Positions 16,773 to 53,321 of a DNA stretch of 64,000 bases are shown here, one piece after another. Positions within the stretch are counted from its first letter, which is position 1. Each line of letters opens with the position of its first letter. The notes under the pieces are model-generated. The model saw only the letters and a program-made list of their open reading frames with translations, had not been told where the DNA came from and did not search any database. Both the position numbers and the translations under genes were made by a program. The DNA is taken from NCBI GenBank assembly GCA_016180435.1, contig JACPBG010000001.1, positions 136,358-200,357 of the forward strand. Direction: 5' to 3'. Origin of the DNA: Candidatus Sungiibacteriota bacterium. GTDB taxonomy: Bacteria > Patescibacteriota > Minisyncoccia > Sungbacterales > HO2-52-23.

Positions 16773-16816
16773 AACAGTGACAGAGATAATATAGAGATTA
16801 CATTAAGGTCTATCAA

Positions 16817-16858
16817 TGTTTTTCATTAATTCGCGATCGCGAATTAATGAAAAACATA
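16817..16858. promoter_or_regulatory. Perfect 42-nt palindrome (family F, copy 1) about 45 nt upstream of mpg
   Basis: atgtttttcattaattcgcgatcgcgaattaatgaaaaacat; near-identical copy at 43659-43693. Confidence 0.5.
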
Positions 16859-16897
16859 TAAAAATATTAAATTTCAGATTAATCAGAGTCCGGCTTG

Positions 16898-18094
16898 TTA
16901 AATCTTAGCTAGTGCCAACTTTAAATCCTCAATCAAATCCAGAGGGTCTTCCCTGCCGATTGATAATCGCAAGGTCCCTTGAGTAATTTCAGCCTTGGCG
17001 AGTTCTTCTTTAGTCAATTGCCCGTGCGTAGTGGTGGCCGGATGAATCACAAGTGAACGCGACTCACCAATATTTGGCGCATGCCAAAAAAGGCGCAATG
17101 ATTCCAGCACGCGTTTAGCGTCACGTCTTCCGCCTTTTATTTCAAAGGCCATGAGTCCCCCAAAACCCTGCGGCATGATTTTTTTATTCTCCCGCGCACG
17201 GGGACCGAAAGCGGGATAAAATACACGCCGAACTTTGGGGTGCTTTGAAAGAAACCGGGCAACCCTAAGAGCGTTTTTCGAGTGTTCCATGACCCGGCCA
17301 AAAAGCGACTCGGCATGCGATAGAAAAATCGCGGCATTGTCCGGAGACATGCAAGGCCCCAATGTCCTAAACCAACCAAGTCGCATGTCGTCAATCAATC
17401 TTTTCTTCCCGACAATGCATCCGCCGATCACCTCGCCATCGCCAAAATATTTTGAGAGCGAATGCCACACGATATCTGCGCCCCGTTTCAAAGGCTGCGC
17501 CAGAGCCGGGGTTGCCAAAGTGTTATCTATAACCAATTTTATGCCATGACGATGCGCGATTTTAGCAATCGGACGCGGATCAAACAAATCAATAAGGGGA
17601 TTGGATGGATTTTCCAACGCAAGAAACCGGGTATTAGACCGAATGGCGCGTTCCCACTCGTCAAGATCATATGGATTTTCCAGGAGAGTAACCTCAATAC
17701 CAAGTTTCGGGAGCAATTCACGAAAAAGATGCAACACGCCGCCATAGAGCCGGTTAGACGAGACAATATGTCCGCCGCCATTCGCGAGGTGCAAAGATAT
17801 TATAAGAATCGCGGACATGCCGGACGAAGTAGCAAGTCCGGCCTCTGCTCCTTCCAACACTGCGACCCGTTTTTCCAAACGATCAACAGTGCGATTATTA
17901 ATACGGCTGTAAATAAAACCCCCTTCCTTTCCTTCAAAAAGGCGTTTGGCTCGTTCAAAAGATCCAAGGGGGTAAGCAGTTACGCGGTCAACCACGGGCC
18001 GAAGTTCGTGATCTTTGAAATCACCTCCTCCATGTATTTCAAGGGTTCGCGGCCTCAATTTCCATAGATTTTTTGCTGAAAGTTTTTTCTTCAT
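16898..18094 (-). CDS. PLP-dependent Cys/Met-metabolism enzyme (O-acetylhomoserine sulfhydrylase / cystathionine gamma-synthase family)
   Basis: TLEIHGG N-terminal motif, HSLSKYFGDG with the PLP lysine, overall family fit. The track ORF extends to 18163 across the tRNA region, so the start is placed at the internal Met (MKKKLSAK). Confidence 0.7.
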   Translation of the reverse strand: MKKKLSAKNLWKLRPRTLEIHGGGDFKDHELRPVVDRVTAYPLGSFERAKRLFEGKEGGFIYSRINNRTVDRLEKRVAVLEGAEAGLATSSGMSAILIISLHLANGGGHIVSSNRLYGGVLHLFRELLPKLGIEVTLLENPYDLDEWERAIRSNTRFLALENPSNPLIDLFDPRPIAKIAHRHGIKLVIDNTLATPALAQPLKRGADIVWHSLSKYFGDGEVIGGCIVGKKRLIDDMRLGWFRTLGPCMSPDNAAIFLSHAESLFGRVMEHSKNALRVARFLSKHPKVRRVFYPAFGPRARENKKIMPQGFGGLMAFEIKGGRRDAKRVLESLRLFWHAPNIGESRSLVIHPATTTHGQLTKEELAKAEITQGTLRLSIGREDPLDLIEDLKLALAKI

Positions 18095-18103
18095 ATCGGT
18101 TTT

Positions 18104-18160
18104 AATCGCCCCATGGGGAATTGAACCCCGGTTCCTAGGCCCTGCCCTCCCGCCTTTTAC
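18104..18160 (-). pseudogene. tRNA-like 3' fragment (D-arm remnant fused to T-arm and acceptor 3' strand; no anticodon arm)
   Basis: Minus strand: GGGCCTAGGAACCGGGGTTCAATTCCCCATGGGGCGA; T-loop TTCAATT within a GGGG/CCCC stem. Confidence 0.35.
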
Positions 18161-18164
18161 CAAT

Positions 18165-18239
18165 CAGCCTCACCGGGATTCGAACCCGGGTTACCAGGAT
18201 GAGAACCTGGCGTCCTAGACCAAACTAGACGATGAGGCC
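18165..18239 (-). tRNA. tRNA-Glu (anticodon CTC)
   Basis: Minus strand: GGCCTCATCGTCTAGTTTGGTCTAGGACGCCAGGTTCTCATCCTGGTAACCCGGGTTCGAATCCCGGTGAGGCTG. Anticodon stem CCAGG/CCTGG with loop TTCTCAT. Confidence 0.8.
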
Positions 18240-18270
18240 AAAAAGGTGGGAAGGTGAAAGAACCTAGTGT

Positions 18271-18349
18271 CCTAGGCCACTAGACGATAGGGGCATAAAT
18301 CGCCAGAATTTTGGAAAAATCTGGACTAGACCGGACTAGACGACAGGAG
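18271..18349 (-). repeat. Repeat family G, copy 1: tRNA-Glu-like 5' fragment (acceptor plus D-arm) plus upstream region with further D-arm-like GTCTAGT words
   Basis: Minus strand: GCCCCTATCGTCTAGTGGCCTAGG..; about 85% identical to 34318-34395. Confidence 0.55.
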
Positions 18350-18468
18350 TATAAAAAATGGGTCGGTCGGAGCCGTAACGTGTTATATCTCATCATATAC
18401 CATCATCTTACAATGAATAATGATAAATGAGGAGTTATTTTGCAGGAGGTCTATATATTCACCGGACC

Positions 18469-18825
18469 TTATTTCTTAATTAAATTAAACAAAACCGCGA
18501 AAAGCCATACTCCCAGAAACGCAATTATATTCCAGATGACCAGGCCGGAAAGAAATGTGCCAAATGTCAAAACGTTGCGGCCCACATCAAGATCAGTGTG
18601 AAGAGCGTACATCATAAATCCAAAACGGATCCCGGGAAATAATGCCACTCCGGTAAAACATATTACATAGACCGCACTAATCCAGGCGGCACTAACTTTT
18701 AAAAGATGCATTGTATTAATCATTATTTTAAAAATATTATTACAGTTATGCTCGACCTTTTGACGATTTTCTCCACCACTAAAATGACGATATAATCCAT
18801 TAATTATTTTTTTACAACTATCCAA
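18469..18825 (-). CDS. Hypothetical multi-TM membrane protein
   Basis: ORF track; hydrophobic segments; last gene of the minus-strand redox operon. Confidence 0.35.
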   Translation of the reverse strand: MDSCKKIINGLYRHFSGGENRQKVEHNCNNIFKIMINTMHLLKVSAAWISAVYVICFTGVALFPGIRFGFMMYALHTDLDVGRNVLTFGTFLSGLVIWNIIAFLGVWLFAVLFNLIKK

Positions 18826-18995
18826 ATAAGAAAACCTATAACGGCCACTGCCAGGAATCCCGCCAGAATCAAAGAGCCGATCGCCGGGCCAGCCGCAACT
18901 GTCTCTCCGGCATGCTCTTCTACCTCCTCACCCGCGTGCGCGAGAACAACGGAAACCGGAAGTAAAAAAATAATTGCTGAAAAAAATTTTCCCAT
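18804..18995 (-). CDS. Small exported/membrane protein with signal peptide, acidic His-containing segment (HAGEEVEEHAGE) and C-terminal TM
   Basis: 63-aa ORF overlapping its neighbour. Confidence 0.35.
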   Translation of the reverse strand: MGKFFSAIIFLLPVSVVLAHAGEEVEEHAGETVAAGPAIGSLILAGFLAVAVIGFLIWIVVKK

Positions 18996-19248
18996 GTTAT
19001 TAAATGCGTGGGTTTACCCCACACTTAATTTTAACTGCCGCTTTCGTTTCCATCCAAGGCAAGATGAACATCTGTTAAGAAATGCGGGCGTATCACACCA
19101 GCTTACTCTGGACGGCACGAAAACGGCCTGCCCGCCATATGCCCGTCTCACAAGTAAAGGCGTTACTCGAAACTTCACTGCAGTACTGAACCCCGTCTTA
19201 ACTTCATATACAGGCGTATGGCAGGCGGGTTAAAATTAAGTGTGGGGC

Positions 19249-20373
19249 CTACATCGCCGGGGCAAAAAACGGAAATGTAAGAAGACCCCAGAGGATAAAA
19301 ACAATAAATAATATCGCAAAAGTCCTACGCGACATTTCTTTTTTTTTCTTGAAATAATACCAGATAAGAACGGCTGACGGCACAATCAGATTAAACCAGG
19401 CGCCAAGCCAAAAGAGAGGCACCATCTCTTCCACCAAAGGAATCGCCGCTTCAGCTATCCGCTTTCCACCGATATCACTTACAAAGCGATTCAGTCCTTC
19501 ATGAAAAATAGAGCCCTCGTACCACATGTGCCCGAAAATGCCGTTTAATATGATAAAGGACGAAATTCCAACTAATGCCCAACCGGTAATTTTATCTACC
19601 ACGGCTTTACGTTTGATCAATCCACCGGTGGCATTAACCCCTAATATGCCAAGAACCGAAAAGAAGAGAAGGGGTAAAACTCGTCCCAAACCATTTACCG
19701 CCATGTACCAGGCGCCCACGGCAATACTGCCTGTTCCAGCCGCGGCAGTCAATATCAAGTATGTTACGGGATTGGGACAACCTACACCGGCATTGCCCAG
19801 AAAAAAACCCAGAAACAAGGCCTTAAAATAATCAGGCTGTTTCTGAATAAACGACGGCATGCCGGTATAGGCGGGCATCTTGAAACCAATTAAGGCAAGC
19901 TCGGACATGCCGAAAATAAAAGCTGCAACTCCGGCTATAAAATAAAGAATCCGGGTCGCGCTATCCAATCCTAAATATTGGCCCACCATGGCAATACCGG
20001 CTCCATAAACCGAAAGCATGGCAATCAATCCAACCCCAAAAAGTAAAGCTATGGTCAAGCCTTTACGGTAACCCTTGCCCATAGAAAGCGGGACTATAAT
20101 AAAAACCAGAGGCAAAGTGCAGGGCAACACAATATTGGAGACACCTCCGACGAAAGAAAGAATAGTGGTCAGCGTTTTGGCGGGGGAAGTTGCCAGATAG
20201 GTAAGAAAAATTATTATGGCTGCGAGCATAGCAAAAGCCAGCCCAACAAAAAACATTTTCATTTTCTGTGTTGACTGCGGCGATATTTCTTCCGGCAAAG
20301 ACGCGGCTGTTTCTTCCGGCGAAGGTGTGATTGTTTTGTTGTCCATATTAAGACCCCTAATTATATCCCGCAA
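19249..20373 (-). CDS. CcdA/DsbD-like thiol-disulfide transmembrane electron transporter with extra C-terminal TM helices
   Basis: Two conserved TM cysteine motifs, LPCTLPL and GCPNPV, as in the CcdA/DsbD core; 374 aa. The true start is probably the MKMFFVGL Met. Confidence 0.6.
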   Translation of the reverse strand: MRDIIRGLNMDNKTITPSPEETAASLPEEISPQSTQKMKMFFVGLAFAMLAAIIIFLTYLATSPAKTLTTILSFVGGVSNIVLPCTLPLVFIIVPLSMGKGYRKGLTIALLFGVGLIAMLSVYGAGIAMVGQYLGLDSATRILYFIAGVAAFIFGMSELALIGFKMPAYTGMPSFIQKQPDYFKALFLGFFLGNAGVGCPNPVTYLILTAAAGTGSIAVGAWYMAVNGLGRVLPLLFFSVLGILGVNATGGLIKRKAVVDKITGWALVGISSFIILNGIFGHMWYEGSIFHEGLNRFVSDIGGKRIAEAAIPLVEEMVPLFWLGAWFNLIVPSAVLIWYYFKKKKEMSRRTFAILFIVFILWGLLTFPFFAPAM

Positions 20374-21353
20374 CCGCTTCCTCCGCGCGACGGCGCGTCA
20401 CTTTCCACTCCGCATCCCCCGCTCCCTCCGCGCTGCTCTTTCGGCTGAACAACTTGCGCCGCGATCCTCGCATATCCTTGAGAGCTGGAATAATTGATTC
20501 CAAGAACTTCCTGCGGATTCACGTCCTGCCACTCAATACCCTTATTATTTTTCATATAAGTTGCAATAGTGAGATATGTGTCCGGAAACCAATAGGCATT
20601 CACCTGCAACGCGACTTTATACATCATCTGCTCGCTCACGCCCTGGGATGCCATTAGTTCAAGAAGCCCGAGCATGGCCATGCCGTGATTGCAATCCGGG
20701 AAATGGGTTGAATTTCCGCAACACGGCCGGTATATGCCGCGCGACACCTTGTCCACTAAGGCCTGCTGTTCCGGCGTCAAAACTATGAAAGGATGCCGGC
20801 TGTAATGCTCCATGGCATTACCGCGGGATAATGTCCAGCCGCCGGTAGATGCAAAATTCTCCGCTCCGCCATAACGCGAGTCCGCCATCTCACCGCTTTC
20901 CAAAATATTATTCTTTGTCCCGAGTCCCAATGCCCAAAACATATTCAAAATCAAACCGGAGTTTTCGGAAGTAATTTTAAGATTGCTGTTTGATTCGCCA
21001 TAAAGTAACCTTTTTATTTCACTATTTAACCCGCCTCGACCCGCATAAAGCTGTTCAAATTTTTGAGCGTCAATCACCCCAACGCTTACCATTTTAGCGC
21101 CAAGATCGCCCCATCTGACCGGCAATACCACGCCGTCTACAGGCAAAACTTTTTCTTCAAGTTCCGATACCTCGGTTTTGGGAGTAATATCTTTTTTGGG
21201 GGGGGTATAAGCATTCCTGGGGCCGGAGGTATAAACCCACGCGCCGGCGATAATAAGCGCTGCAGCGACAATATATACACCGAGGTGCTCATTATTTACG
21301 CCCGCCTTTTCATCCGACATTTTGAGTTCCATATTTTGTTCTTCATTTTTCAT
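20361..21353 (-). CDS. Hypothetical exported protein: N-terminal TM anchor, CCGNSTHFPDCNHG motif, Gly/Cys-rich C-terminal tail
   Basis: 330-aa ORF whose 3' end overlaps the CcdA-like gene by 13 nt. Confidence 0.45.
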   Translation of the reverse strand: MKNEEQNMELKMSDEKAGVNNEHLGVYIVAAALIIAGAWVYTSGPRNAYTPPKKDITPKTEVSELEEKVLPVDGVVLPVRWGDLGAKMVSVGVIDAQKFEQLYAGRGGLNSEIKRLLYGESNSNLKITSENSGLILNMFWALGLGTKNNILESGEMADSRYGGAENFASTGGWTLSRGNAMEHYSRHPFIVLTPEQQALVDKVSRGIYRPCCGNSTHFPDCNHGMAMLGLLELMASQGVSEQMMYKVALQVNAYWFPDTYLTIATYMKNNKGIEWQDVNPQEVLGINYSSSQGYARIAAQVVQPKEQRGGSGGCGVESDAPSRGGSGCGI

Positions 21354-21479
21354 CCCGTTAGAAATTTGCCTGCCCCGTAGCGAACGCGTAGCGTTCTGCT
21401 ACTGGGGTTTGGACATATTATTTATGTTTCGAAGTCCGACTTAAATAGCACGCTATTGAAGTCGGACTTCATTAAGCTA

Positions 21480-22250
21480 TTATTTCAGCCAGCCGGTTAT
21501 CGTCTGAACAAGCTGATTAAGATAAATGTTTATTTTTATTTGAAATTCTCCTCCGCCCATCGCCAGCTGGTTTGTTATTGCGAGGTATAAGATAAAAATG
21601 CCCATCAAAAAGAAGGTTATGCCGGATATCACATCGGCTATCGCAAGATTAATTTGCCTCGCGCCGATTGAATAAGACAGGCGTTTATTTGATTCCATAA
21701 GTTTTTTAGTGAAGTTGTTTTTATCCAGGAGATGGGCAATCAGGAAAAGAGGGGCAACCATTCCTAAAACATAGGCAAGAGCATAAACCCCTCCCCAAAA
21801 AATGGAATTAGGCAAAACAGATAAAGCCACAACACCGGCCAAAACCGGAGCACAGCACATGGTCGCAAATCCCGAAAAAATACCGAGTGTAAAAACCGAG
21901 CCCGCACTATTGATTTTTAATTTCGGACTAACGGAAAACGGCATTGAAAAATGCTGCCCCAGCAGTATCAATGCCCCTAGAAATAAAAGGAATATTCCTC
22001 CGGCAATAAATATCGGATCGTGATATTCACTGAATAACTTCCCGAGGCCAGCCGCCCCCATACCCAGCGGCAGGAACACCGCGAGAAGTCCCAGGAAAAA
22101 TACAAAAGTCATCCAAAACACTTTTTGTTTTTCCCTGAAAATAGAACCCAAATATGAAGGCAGTAAAACAGTGATACAACAAGGCGCAAAGAGCGCCGCT
22201 ATTCCGGCGATAAACGCGGTTATAAGCGATGCGATAATTAATGTTTCCAT
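21480..22250 (-). CDS. DsbD_2/MerT-like membrane protein with two Cys-Cys-x-Pro TM motifs (internal duplication)
   Basis: FAPCCITVLLP and FATMCCAPVLAG. The track start at 22283 is non-ATG and lies inside a repeat, so the start is moved to the METLIIAS Met at 22250. Confidence 0.5.
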   Translation of the reverse strand: METLIIASLITAFIAGIAALFAPCCITVLLPSYLGSIFREKQKVFWMTFVFFLGLLAVFLPLGMGAAGLGKLFSEYHDPIFIAGGIFLLFLGALILLGQHFSMPFSVSPKLKINSAGSVFTLGIFSGFATMCCAPVLAGVVALSVLPNSIFWGGVYALAYVLGMVAPLFLIAHLLDKNNFTKKLMESNKRLSYSIGARQINLAIADVISGITFFLMGIFILYLAITNQLAMGGGEFQIKINIYLNQLVQTITGWLK

Positions 22251-22267
22251 GATTATTGAATCCTCTC

Positions 22268-22367
22268 TAGACCTACTGCACAAAGATTTTCGTCACGAAA
22301 TTTAAGAATTTCGAGGCAAAATCGCTGAACAAACTTTGCGGCCTATCGCTTAGATAAGCCAAAAAGC
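22268..22367. repeat. MITE-like family B, copy 1 (left arm plus centre); overlaps the 3' end of the thioredoxin-like gene and provides its stop codon
   Basis: tagacctactgcacaaagattttcgtcacgaaatttaagaatttcgaggcaaaatcgctgaacaaactttgcggcctatcgcttagataagccaaaaag is near-identical to the first 100 nt of 53158-53321. Confidence 0.7.
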
Positions 22368-22918
22368 GGGTCATCCAGCGTAAATCTGATTATCCCGTTT
22401 TTATCAATAATAAAATAGGTGTGGCCGGGAAAACCGCCCGGATGCATTGATGAATTTAAGTATAACACATCATACGCCCGAGACACGGAGCGCGCGGCGT
22501 CAAAAAGAATTTTGGATTTTGCCAGATTCGGCGATTTACTTACGATTTCCTGCCATTGACCCTTAGAATCGACAACAATGGAGAAAGCCGCTACATTTTC
22601 GGTATCAAATCTGGGATCATTACCAAACCCCGCTATCTGATCCCAACAAGCCGGATAACACATCGCCCCCTCATTAAAGAAAAGCACTACGTTTTTACCG
22701 AGATAATCGTTTAATTTAACTGTTTTCCCGTCAATACTTTCCAGCGCAAAGTCCGGAGCTTTTTTGCCCACCGCATCTTTAAAAACCAATTTTTCTTTAG
22801 AATTTACATCATTCGTGATGGCTAAATTTATATCGGGACGGTTTCCTCCCGCGGTGAAGATAAGAAATCCGCCGATAATAATTGCCGCTGCGCTTATAAT
22901 TATTGTTTTTTTACCCAT
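22343..22918 (-). CDS. Thioredoxin-fold thiol-disulfide oxidoreductase (TlpA/ResA/redoxin-like), N-terminal membrane anchor
   Basis: KAPDFALESIDGKTVKLNDYLGKNVVLFF..CYPAC (CxxC) layout typical of TlpA-like redoxins. The C-terminal FGLSKR* is encoded by repeat B. Confidence 0.65.
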   Translation of the reverse strand: MGKKTIIISAAAIIIGGFLIFTAGGNRPDINLAITNDVNSKEKLVFKDAVGKKAPDFALESIDGKTVKLNDYLGKNVVLFFNEGAMCYPACWDQIAGFGNDPRFDTENVAAFSIVVDSKGQWQEIVSKSPNLAKSKILFDAARSVSRAYDVLYLNSSMHPGGFPGHTYFIIDKNGIIRFTLDDPLFGLSKR

Positions 22919-22924
22919 AGTATT

Positions 22925-23033
22925 TAGAACTTACGCGTTTAAATGAAAAGACCCGCTTTTGTCATTCCCGTGAAAACGGGAATCCAGTATTTTAGGCATA
23001 TATCGGGAATGACATTAAACGTGTAAATCCTAA
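22925..23033. repeat. MITE-like family C, copy 1
   Basis: acttacgcgttt...gtcattcccg..cgggaatccagtattttaggc is shared in inverted orientation with 27691-27824. Confidence 0.65.
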
Positions 23034-23117: not shown

Positions 23118-23546
23118 TTACCCCGGCGCCTTAAAAAAAGATGGGCTATTTTCATGGAGCGCAAGCCAGCGAATGAATTTCCGATGGCGCGAAGAAACGG
23201 GCCATTCCGATAAATGGCGGTTTGAATAGATACCAATCAAAGCGGGGCTATGCCAAAAATTCCCGGCACCGAAAATCCAGAAAGTTAAAACCGACATCAG
23301 GAAAGCCGCCAATATGCCTAAAAGATTCTTTGCAAAAGTGGCGGTTAAAATGCTTTTCAACGCATCAAAATGGAAATTCAGAAAAACCAGTGAAACGGTG
23401 TCTTCCGGGCAATCAATGCCTTTGGCGGCGGAGGCAATACACCCCTTATGGCTGTTGTCGGAACCGTGATCCATGGCAAACACGCCGGCATTAGCAATGC
23501 CCATGATACTTAAGATTACTATAGCCGCAAGAATAATTTTTATCAT
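23118..23546 (-). CDS. Hypothetical exported/membrane protein (signal peptide, two Cys, HGSDNSHKGC segment)
   Basis: 142-aa ORF directly downstream of the giant surface protein gene. Confidence 0.35.
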   Translation of the reverse strand: MIKIILAAIVILSIMGIANAGVFAMDHGSDNSHKGCIASAAKGIDCPEDTVSLVFLNFHFDALKSILTATFAKNLLGILAAFLMSVLTFWIFGAGNFWHSPALIGIYSNRHLSEWPVSSRHRKFIRWLALHENSPSFFKAPG

Positions 23547-27440: not shown

Positions 27441-27644
27441 CTATATACAGCTGCAATGATCTTCGGATTGTCCACATGCCTTGCATTTTACCCTAAATTT
27501 ACCGCCGCCCATACATTCTTTCCAATGAAACGGATCATAATGACCCGAGGATTTACCGCATTTCGGGCATTTCATTCCCTCGCCTTCTCCGCCGCAATGA
27601 CTACAGTGCTTGCTGGAAATATGATGTTTAATATGTTCTGTCAT
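27441..27644 (-). CDS. Small Cys/His-rich putative metal-binding protein (tandem CxxC zinc-ribbon-like motifs)
   Basis: 67 aa with 10 Cys and 8 His: HCSHCGG...CPKCG...CKACG..HCSC. Confidence 0.45.
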   Translation of the reverse strand: MTEHIKHHISSKHCSHCGGEGEGMKCPKCGKSSGHYDPFHWKECMGGGKFRVKCKACGQSEDHCSCI

Positions 27645-27690: not shown

Positions 27691-27824
27691 TAGGACTTAC
27701 GCGTTTGATGTCATTCCCGACTTGATCGGGAATCCAGGAAACCCATATTTGCCTAAAATACTGGATTCCCGTTTTCACGGAAATGACAAAAATGGGTCTT
27801 CCCATTCAAACGCGTAAGTCCTAT
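27691..27824. repeat. MITE-like family C, copy 2 (full palindromic form)
   Basis: Terminal inverted repeats aggacttacgcgtttga / tcaaacgcgtaagtcct; inner inverted repeat gtcattcccg / cgggaatgaca. Confidence 0.65.
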
Positions 27825-27908
27825 ATTTAAAAGAATTACAACACTTGATTAAATGTGCCTAATATAGTAAGCTTATGCATATAATTTCCGGAACCGAAGG
27901 AAAGAAAA

Positions 27909-30520: not shown

Positions 30521-30634
30521 TAGACCTACTACGCAAAGATTAATCTACTGCAATTTAATAATTTCGGCCAAAATCGCTTCAAAACTTTTTGGCTTATCTA
30601 AGCGATAGGCCGCAAAGTTTGTTCAGCGATTTTG
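30521..30634. repeat. MITE-like family B, copy 2 (inverted; right arm plus centre), supplies the obg stop codon
   Basis: Reverse complement matches 53207-53321. Preceded by ttattag, like the full copy. Confidence 0.7.
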
Positions 30635-34304: not shown

Positions 34305-34317
34305 TACACCAACTCCT

Positions 34318-34395
34318 CCTAGGCCACTAGACGACGGGGGCATAAATCGCCAGAATTTTGAAGAAATCGGGAATAGACCGAAATAGACGACAGGA
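34318..34395 (-). repeat. Repeat family G, copy 2 (tRNA-Glu-like 5' fragment plus upstream region)
   Basis: Minus strand: GCCCCCGTCGTCTAGTGGCCTAGGAGG; about 85% identical to 18271-18349. Confidence 0.55.
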
Positions 34396-34580
34396 ACACA
34401 AAATGTTTGATTTCTTATCTTACTACAATTCTTACTACGATATACTAAAAATAAAGCGCTTTCACAAGGAAACTTAATCACGGAATGGCTTTTTTTATTT
34501 GACAAAGCCAAAAAATAGATGTATTAAATCTGTATTAAGAGGGTTGGCTCTTTTAAAACCCAGTATGGAGGAGGCTCAAA

Positions 34581-43532: not shown

Positions 43533-43658
43533 AAGATCAAAACTATACCATGCATATCATGATCAAGTTTAAATTACAATATAGACCCTATCACGTCGCC
43601 ATCGAACTGGATTATATATTTTAGCAGGCCGAAAAAATTCTAAGTTAGATTTATTAAT

Positions 43659-43693
43659 GTTTTTCACTAATTCGCGATCGCGAATTAGTGAAA
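43659..43693. promoter_or_regulatory. Perfect palindrome (family F, copy 2) upstream of the saccharopine-DH-family gene
   Basis: tttttcactaattcgcgatcgcgaattagtgaaaa; same TTCGCGATCGCGAA core as 16817-16858. Confidence 0.5.
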
Positions 43694-43913
43694 ATTAATA
43701 AAAAATGGGTCCCCATGGGCAAGCCCCGTCACCAAAATTTTGACAGTTTCTGTGCCGCCCCGAATAAGCTGGCGGGATATACTCTGTATTTCTTGATATA
43801 TGTTCATCTCTCTTGGGATGGAAACGAAAGCGGCAGTCAAAATTTGGTGCGGGGCAAGCCCATGATCTTTTGGAGCATGGATAAAAATCCGCCTAAAGGC
43901 GACTACAATGAAG

Positions 43914-53157: not shown

Positions 53158-53321
53158 TAGACCTACTGCACAAAGATTTTCGTCACGAAATTTCAGAATT
53201 TCGAGGCAAAATCGCTGAATAAACTTTGCGGCCTATCGGCCAAGATAAGCCAAAAAGTTTTGAAGCGATTTTGGCCGAAATTCTGAAATTGCAGTAGATT
53301 AATCTTTGCGCAGTAGGTCTA
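53158..53321. repeat. MITE-like family B, full-length palindromic copy (about 164 bp, 22-bp terminal inverted repeats)
   Basis: tagacctactgcacaaagatt ... aatctttgcgcagtaggtcta; the terminal cta provides the TAG stop of the minus-strand ORF 53319-53573. Confidence 0.7.

Follow-up and report, generated by a model that had tools for sequence, protein, structure and literature searches.

Pairs of a DsbD-like membrane protein and a thioredoxin-fold protein are already known from bacterial copper defence, in the Scs system of Salmonella, Proteus and Caulobacter (ScsB with ScsC/ScsD). ScsB and ScsC are induced by copper stress and bind Cu(I) besides acting as thiol oxidoreductases (PMC10907172; PMC3322552), and copper induces tlpA 235-fold in C. 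glutamicum (PMC3140484). Here we describe seven minus-strand genes, G-A-B-C-D-E-F in order of transcription, in a 64,000-nucleotide stretch (the window) of contig JACPBG010000001.1 from a Candidatus Sungiibacteriota bacterium, of the Patescibacteria (Candidate Phyla Radiation, CPR). We give about an even chance to the proposal that these genes form a Patescibacteria accessory copper-homeostasis module, working as an Scs-like thiol relay at the exofacial side of the cytoplasmic membrane. The genes, and the tRNA gene at the downstream edge of the cluster, are as follows.

23118-23546, minus strand: G, two-transmembrane (two-TM) protein, 142 aa; no Pfam family; beyond the originally described span 18469-22918
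22343-22918, minus strand: A, redoxin-fold protein, 191 aa; Pfam AhpC-TSA 6e-21, Redoxin 1e-12
21480-22283, minus strand: B, DsbD/CcdA-family membrane protein, open reading frame (ORF) of 267 aa; Pfam DsbD_TM 33.5 bits, cutoff 27.1
20361-21353, minus strand: C, membrane-anchored exofacial protein, 330 aa; no Pfam family
19249-20373, minus strand: D, DsbD/DsbD_2-like membrane protein, 374 aa; DsbD_2 24.6 bits, cutoff 24.9
18804-18995, minus strand: E, small signal-peptide protein, 63 aa; no Pfam family
18469-18825, minus strand: F, DUF5676 two-TM protein, ORF of 118 aa; Pfam DUF5676 6e-9
18164-18240, minus strand: tRNA-Glu(CUC), from ARAGORN

Genes A to F are the six co-directional ORFs of positions 18469-22918, where a sequence-only reading had placed them; all the motifs it had quoted were found in the ORF check, and its assignment of the block to extracytoplasmic thiol/metal handling, on the strength of two DsbD-superfamily membrane proteins, is backed by Pfam, homologue families and hhalign. 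That reading omitted the conserved gene G. It had the genes overlap or abut, which holds for C and D (13 bp of overlap), the remaining gaps being 59-253 bp; the tRNA cluster it took for a boundary is the single tRNA-Glu above; and its 118-aa F probably has 84 aa (18469-18723), as does the orthologue in locus L092, so that E and F would not overlap. For B, the most likely start codon is the ATG at 22250, giving a protein (21480-22250, 256 aa) as long as its closest homologues. NCBIfam added nothing decisive to the Pfam assignments of the cluster proteins, and promoter and terminator scans did no better than on shuffled sequence. Searched for in other genomes, the gene set shows conserved synteny: the order G-redoxin-B-C recurs in L005, L012 and L029, and C-D-E-F in L092, which argues that the cluster is more than a chance assembly. 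Like Scs, it joins a DsbD-superfamily membrane protein to exported Cys proteins and has a genetic tie to copper. Unlike Scs, it has a minimal B of CcdA size with doubled cysteines in place of the three-domain ScsB, a partner that carries CX3C plus His or is an Ig-like DUF1573 protein in place of a DsbA/DsbG-like CxxC protein, and, in C and G, two proteins with no Scs counterpart, all in a monoderm-like CPR bacterium. What sets this system apart is the minimal, doubly cysteinylated DsbD, the interchangeable partners, the host group, and the undescribed C with its companion G.

Protein C, overlooked as a hub by the earlier reading, is the conserved centre of the system and a member of an undescribed family. 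Its homologues number more than 7000 in a collection of 5.8 billion proteins, all annotated 'hypothetical', the best 120 being 58-100% identical; they form 718 clusters at 50% identity. The family is present in at least 576 GTDB species, whose genome titles all place them in Patescibacteria. Across Parcubacteria, identity is ~60%, and numerous aromatic, Gly and Asn positions are invariant. Among 114 divergent members, the loop R209-P210-C211-C212-x-N214-x5-D220-C221-N222-H223-G224 and Cys314 of the Gly-rich tail are conserved at 99-100%, and the ASTGGW motif (residues 168-173) at 93-98%; a second tail Cys lies in GCGI. The earlier reading had C exported; the N-terminus of C is a membrane anchor (helix 24-42 in the AlphaFold2 model) instead of an obvious cleaved signal peptide. 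In the same model the core (residues 60-302) is mainly helical, with a predicted local distance difference test (pLDDT) score above 90, the tail is disordered, and Cys221 stands at the start of helix 222-236. No match to C was found in Pfam, NCBIfam, PHROGs or PDB with either the single sequence or a 47-sequence profile, Foldseek searches of PDB with two confident AlphaFold2 models (C and a natural fusion) returned noise only (best E 2.4 and 0.3), and literature searches retrieved no paper with the C motif. Natural fusions suggest, by Rosetta-stone logic, that small Cys-bearing membrane proteins work together with C: in P0126 it is joined to fam17 (TM 'CPICAG', cytoplasmic C-terminal 'NCC'), and in 21 aligned proteins (P0167, P0174, P0237 and 18 others; alignment A3), as well as in L093, to a multi-TM domain with an intramembrane GCPxCG/CxxC motif resembling fam18.

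The context of C was sampled in 80 species-representative loci and several metagenome contigs, from which ORFs were extracted and clustered. A P1B ATPase lies within 10 kb of C in 24 of the 25 species loci with complete 10-kb flanks around it (63/80 overall), and a CsoR-family regulator in 13 of these 25. Full-length ATPases beside C carry CPC+YN+MxxSS in 30 of 59 cases, the P1B-1 (CopA) signature of Argüello's classification, and CPH+MSxST in 16 of 59, the P1B-3 (CopB) signature. Further recurrent neighbours are CsoR-family repressors, YHS/TRASH peptides, DUF302, DUF3105, SHOCT and ICMT-like proteins, Cupredoxin_1 proteins with a CupA-like C...CxMxM motif, and fusions of a cytoplasmic HMA domain to DsbD_2 (21/80 loci). 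Most compact is L093, where a distant fused C homologue (~35% identity, with a CxxC membrane domain) sits in a csoR-x-ATPase-C-cupredoxin operon, 16 bp from the ATPase gene. The other families of the cluster are tied to copper or metal genes separately: redoxin, B and DUF5676 are neighbours of a YHS-ATPase in an Aenigmarchaeota genome that has no C; DUF5676 genes adjoin P-type ATPases, usually directly, in L007, L017, L019, L045, L090 and L091; and downstream of D homologues in archaea and proteobacteria come an HMA or YHS gene and a Thioredoxin_3 gene, sometimes with a thioredoxin-reductase (TrxR)-like gene and a P-type ATPase besides. The CsoR-family regulators beside C (fam9) have a C-H-H fingerprint (YCxD...ENHLxxH), unlike the x-C-H-C of canonical CsoR, and may respond to a different metal or ligand than textbook CsoR does.

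CusF of E. coli and the membrane-anchored CupA of S. pneumoniae are exofacial or periplasmic acceptors of CopA-exported Cu(I). C is likewise membrane-anchored, rich in soft ligands and found beside an ATPase (the 16-bp gap of L093), and CupA-like cupredoxins are present in the same islands; in contrast to CusF and CupA, C is mostly helical, with an unrelated fold that has no PDB match, and has Cys3His plus a tail Cys in place of Met/His/Trp or C...CxMxM.

Upstream of C, counted in the 66 loci with at least 3.5 kb on that side, 59 have a G-type gene (fam2, or the alternative fam41), 58 a DsbD-like membrane protein and 62 an exported Cys-bearing partner; the conserved module therefore starts with G, outside 18469-22918. 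Two forms are almost mutually exclusive. In type I (46 loci) a DUF1573 protein (SCxC, GMPGHGG) accompanies fam5, a CcdA-like protein of 259 aa with C57, C174xxxC178 and three conserved His; in type II, the minority form to which the window belongs (11 loci), a CX3C redoxin accompanies a CC-bearing DsbD_TM protein. By hhalign, B-type proteins are homologous to fam5 (probability 82%, E 1e-5, 189 columns). DUF1573 is known as a selenoprotein with a UGC motif (PMC9312934), which fits a redox-active CxC. In L014, L043 and L048, ORFs of ~520 aa upstream of C fuse it to a domain that on visual inspection (of L048) resembles a YVTN-type beta-propeller. Nine loci have fam33, a VKOR-partner-like Trx protein, upstream of C.

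Both membrane proteins belong to the DsbD superfamily. The Pfam DsbD_TM (PF02683) match of B, above the gathering score, covers residues 19-184; its homologues all carry PF02683, and it is 100% identical to HYT98_00765 of Candidatus Sungbacteria. Each half-repeat of B has a vicinal Cys pair, APC24C25 and TMC132C133AP, all four cysteines being 99-100% conserved in 115 sequences, with His77 and His100 conserved too. B thus has the Cys-after-Pro of DsbD/CcdA in TM1 and TM4, but each Cys is doubled, which is atypical of the family. An A-type redoxin adjoins the B-type gene in 14 of 16 loci, as it does in L091 and in Aenigmarchaeota L090. Identity of B is 80-90% across the Parcubacteria lineages Giovannoni-, Yanofsky-, Wolfe-, Nomura- and Woesebacteria (B family P0391-P0510) and 64% in Aenigmarchaeota archaea, whereas the neighbouring C is just ~65% identical in L005, L012 and L029, the loci with the same gene order; this difference suggests that the redoxin-B cassette moves horizontally. 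D has a single, invariant Cys per half-repeat (LPC85TLP and GC199PNP), and two histidines, His282 and His291, are conserved in its C-terminal extension. Its DsbD_2 (PF13386) score falls just below the cutoff; PF02683 and PF13386 are found in its homologues at 50-90% identity, which, at 50-60% identity across groups, are present in CPR, DPANN, Nitrosopumilaceae and Pseudomonadota. D follows C in L092, L026 and L011. The trio of D, a small HMA or YHS protein and a Thioredoxin_3 protein is kept in L085, L086 and L087, followed in L087 by a thioredoxin-reductase-like gene and in L086 by a P-type ATPase; to our knowledge this cross-domain module has not been characterised.

A is a membrane-anchored, exofacial protein of the thioredoxin fold (AhpC-TSA/Redoxin). 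The sequence-only reading was right about the redoxin fold; the CxxC it reported is a CX3C, M-C-Y-P-A-C-W (C87-Y-P-A-C91), accompanied by His. The CX3C, SSMH (His159) and PGH (His166) motifs are invariant in 16 relatives (alignment A2). ResA structures are matched at 1e-4 to 1e-7 in the PDB search, so that A has the fold of TlpA/ResA without the CxxC active site. As a peroxiredoxin of the AhpC/TSA or Bcp kind it also fails: NCBIfam peroxiredoxin models score at most 36 bits against cutoffs of at least 140, and in HMMER alignments to peroxiredoxin structures the catalytic Arg position is taken by His166 and the Thr position of the peroxidatic-Cys context is not conserved. With CX3C, and His166 at the Arg position, A therefore belongs neither to the peroxiredoxins nor to the classical TlpA proteins. 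It resembles CcdA-ResA/TlpA pairs in that B, a DsbD_TM protein of CcdA size, stands beside a membrane-anchored AhpC-TSA/Redoxin-fold protein; it departs from them in its CX3C, in the CC pairs of B where CcdA has single Cys, and in that no CcsBA, cytochromes or oxidase are in view. Sco proteins combine CX3C with a distal His, and A shares this combination, the His preceding a '...F/Y-I-I-D-x-x-G' strand, together with a thioredoxin/peroxiredoxin-like fold and a membrane anchor. The likeness is at motif level only, however, since A has no SCO1-SenC (PF02630) match at E<=0.1 in Pfam, no Sco chain among the best 60 of its 113 PDB profile matches, and no cytochrome oxidase client; Sco membership of A accordingly appears doubtful. 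The 3' end of A is unusual, in that its last seven codons (LFGLSKR) and stop come from a repeat, and ~17 C-terminal residues kept in its relatives are absent, replaced by the repeat, which looks like a MITE-like (miniature inverted-repeat transposable element) insertion that reshaped a coding 3' end:

22268-22366, no strand: dispersed repeat of ~100 bp at the A-B junction; copies at 53158-53257 (95% identical) and 30585-30634 (partial)

G has an exofacial Cys pair, Cys36 (100% conserved) and Cys46 (98%), with His59 and a conserved C-terminal WLxLxENSPSF motif. E combines a signal peptide and a C-terminal TM anchor with an H-x-G-E-E-V-E-E-H-A-G motif, and finds no family in Pfam, NCBIfam or further family searches; its counterpart in L092, of equal length and position, is ~70% identical. 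Literature searches on DUF5676, the family of F, retrieved no papers.

We would assemble these components as follows. B and D would bring reducing equivalents, electrons rather than metal ions, across the membrane from cytoplasmic thioredoxin-type donors, an input indirectly supported by the Thioredoxin_3 and TrxR-like neighbours of the D family. B would hand electrons to membrane-anchored A, with its thioredoxin fold and Sco-like CX3C and His ligand set, and A and B together would hold the exofacial cysteines of C reduced. Reduced C, by means of its Cys3His loop and flexible C-terminal Cys arm, would then bind and pass on Cu(I) expelled by copper P1B ATPases. The idea is that of the TlpA-ScoI work, in which a TlpA-type reductase reportedly prepares the cysteines of a copper chaperone (TlpA reducing ScoI and CoxB). 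Such a relay may also reverse copper-catalysed disulfides in C and other envelope proteins, and G (exofacial Cys pair), E (His/Glu peptide) and F (DUF5676) would be small membrane accessories of the same island. A broader proposal, which we hold tentatively and rate a little short of even, is that C has a new fold and is the hub of an undescribed defence system spread across Patescibacteria: it would receive Cu(I) from CopA/CopB at the outer membrane face, have its thiols serviced by interchangeable DsbD-like modules (redoxin with CC-DsbD, or DUF1573 with the CcdA-like protein), and be fused to its own CxxC membrane partner in some lineages. The chance that C defines a new class of exofacial copper-handling proteins is substantial.

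Several points weigh against the Scs-like relay. The copper-island linkage (P1B ATPase and CsoR) of the C family as a whole does not extend to this copy: the window, over its entire 64 kb, contains no P1B ATPase, CsoR, DUF1573 or fam5 gene, and the cluster is here detached from the copper island seen elsewhere. This copy of the system may be impaired because the 3' end of A is replaced by a repeat element. Three loci (L014, L043 and L048) join C to G and DUF1573 without any DsbD-like gene. The Cys3His site of C could instead be a structural zinc site. Finally, the ligand sets (vicinal CC and His in B, CX3C and His in A, CxC and GMPGHGG in DUF1573) look more like metal sites than thiol-exchange sites, so that B and D may carry Cu(I) itself.

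This last point leads to a metal relay, which we consider doubtful and rank below the electron relay. Here B, D, fam5 and the HMA-DsbD_2 fusions would be Cu(I) permeases of the DsbD/LysE superfamily, A, DUF1573 and C exofacial Cu(I) chaperones comparable to MerP with MerT/MerF, and the C-terminal CC tails of fam11 and fam17 cytoplasmic acceptors. Adjacent cysteines typically ligate Hg or Cu and form disulfides poorly, and metal transporters are found in the LysE superfamily. The conserved Cys and His sets of B, fam5, A and DUF1573 would suit such a path, as would the HMA domains on the cytoplasmic side of DsbD_2 and the natural joining of C to membrane domains that carry intramembrane CPxC or CxxC and cytoplasmic CC tails (P0126 and the 21 aligned proteins). 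However, the characterised members of Pfam DsbD_TM are all electron transporters; B is paired with a thioredoxin-fold protein, the classical CcdA arrangement; thioredoxin-type genes recur beside the D family; and copper import next to an exporter has no obvious logic. MerT/MerF/MerP have vicinal Cys pairs in TM helices, as does B, together with an exported Cys partner and, as in the neighbouring fam11 and fam17, C-terminal CC tails; B has no MerT homology, and the linked pumps bear copper-type motifs. Electron and metal relays are, moreover, not mutually exclusive, since ScsB and ScsC are both Cu(I)-binding proteins and oxidoreductases. Less probable again, and in our estimate improbable, is that C is itself a new-fold thiol-disulfide oxidoreductase or isomerase with Cys221 reactive and the tail Cys as a shuttle arm, which repairs or forms envelope disulfides, copper merely triggering the stress and the Cys3His site perhaps binding structural zinc. 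Its conservation is unusually high for a metal sponge, Cys221 lies at the N-terminus of a helix, the flexible C-terminal Cys is 100% conserved, fam33 is an occasional neighbour, and disulfide repair counters copper stress in the Scs precedent (PMC10907172). Nevertheless, the searches of C revealed no likeness in fold or sequence to known oxidoreductases, no cofactor-binding motif was recognised in it, and the L093 operon and the 24/25 ATPase linkage suggest that C deals with copper directly.

The sequence-only reading had offered two alternatives, disulfide reduction or isomerisation in surface or pilus proteins, and a MerT-like metal-thiolate module. Of these the metal half is favoured by the copper ATPase, CsoR and HMA neighbours, which speak for copper as the metal and not mercury. 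Taken jointly, a surface or pilus disulfide reductase, CcdA-ResA cytochrome c maturation and a mercury-type MerT system strike us as very improbable, despite a 1240-aa surface protein that adjoins the cluster, the public annotation of B as 'cytochrome c biogenesis protein CcdA' and CC motifs reminiscent of MerT. The surface protein has no homologue in any of 84 related loci, so that a functional link to it is not supported. B has no Pfam MerT (PF02411) match at E<=0.1, leaving vicinal Cys as the sole resemblance, and no mer-family gene was matched among the scanned neighbours of C loci. A role in cytochrome c maturation, which that reading had already thought unlikely, is not supported for System II: the six-frame translation of the window contains no W[GA]x[FYWLIV]WxWD heme-handling motif, and a single stray CxxCH, within a 109-aa ORF segment. 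Patescibacteria/CPR genomes, besides, generally lack respiratory electron-transport chains (PMC8672522).

Patescibacteria make up a large share of bacterial diversity, with tiny genomes and nearly all members uncultured, and a gene present in so many of their species, at such identity across lineages, argues that the gene set must matter to them. A 'hypothetical protein' with thousands of homologues thereby becomes a testable candidate for the so far missing partner that would serve copper-exporting ATPases outside cells that have no periplasm. DsbD/CcdA-type proteins, routinely labelled 'cytochrome c biogenesis', are here tied to copper homeostasis in cytochrome-free organisms; if CC-bearing variants were to move Cu(I) instead of electrons, this would be a new transport function for the family.

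The window is also rich in short repeats and palindromes, and three intergenic gaps of the cluster contain repeats with further copies in the window (self-BLAST). These elements, and a small gene beyond G, are listed below.

22922-23006, no strand: 85-bp repeat between G and A, with hairpin core ATTCCCGTTTTCACGGGAAT; inverted copy at 27742-27826, 88% identical (self-BLAST)
21431-21470, no strand: near-perfect 40-bp palindrome (19-nt arms, 2-nt gap), beginning 9 nt past the B stop, with no U-run after it
19009-19124, no strand: 117-bp repeat in the D-E gap; inverted copy at 43746-43862, 79% identical (self-BLAST)
16816-16857, no strand: perfect 42-bp palindrome, intergenic, near the cluster
16811-16864, no strand: short dispersed repeat, pairing with 43650-43704
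18270-18356, no strand: short dispersed repeat, pairing with 34317-34403
27441-27644, minus strand: Cys-rich micro-protein of 67 aa, with 10 Cys and 8 His (MTEHIKHHISSKHCSHCGG...CSCI), upstream of the giant surface protein

The core of the 85-bp repeat has two matches where 0.01 would be expected by chance, and its two copies bracket G, the 1240-aa surface protein and the micro-protein. As G directly follows the copper ATPase in other genomes, this block may have been rearranged or inserted in the window. The micro-protein could be metallothionein-like or a zinc-ribbon protein; it has no homologue in the 84 related loci and zinc-ribbon matches are sub-threshold only, so we do not link it functionally to the cluster. 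The palindrome at 21431-21470 is probably an intercistronic RNA hairpin, and a second GC-rich stem (CCCCAGTAGC...GCTACGGGG) lies between it and C; neither is kept in related loci. Beyond the downstream edge, an ORF at 16898-18163 (minus strand) for a pyridoxal phosphate-dependent enzyme of Cys/Met metabolism, similar to O-acetylhomoserine sulfhydrylase or methionine gamma-lyase, adjoins the tRNA-Glu gene as listed, its true start probably being an internal Met (MKKKLSAKN...).

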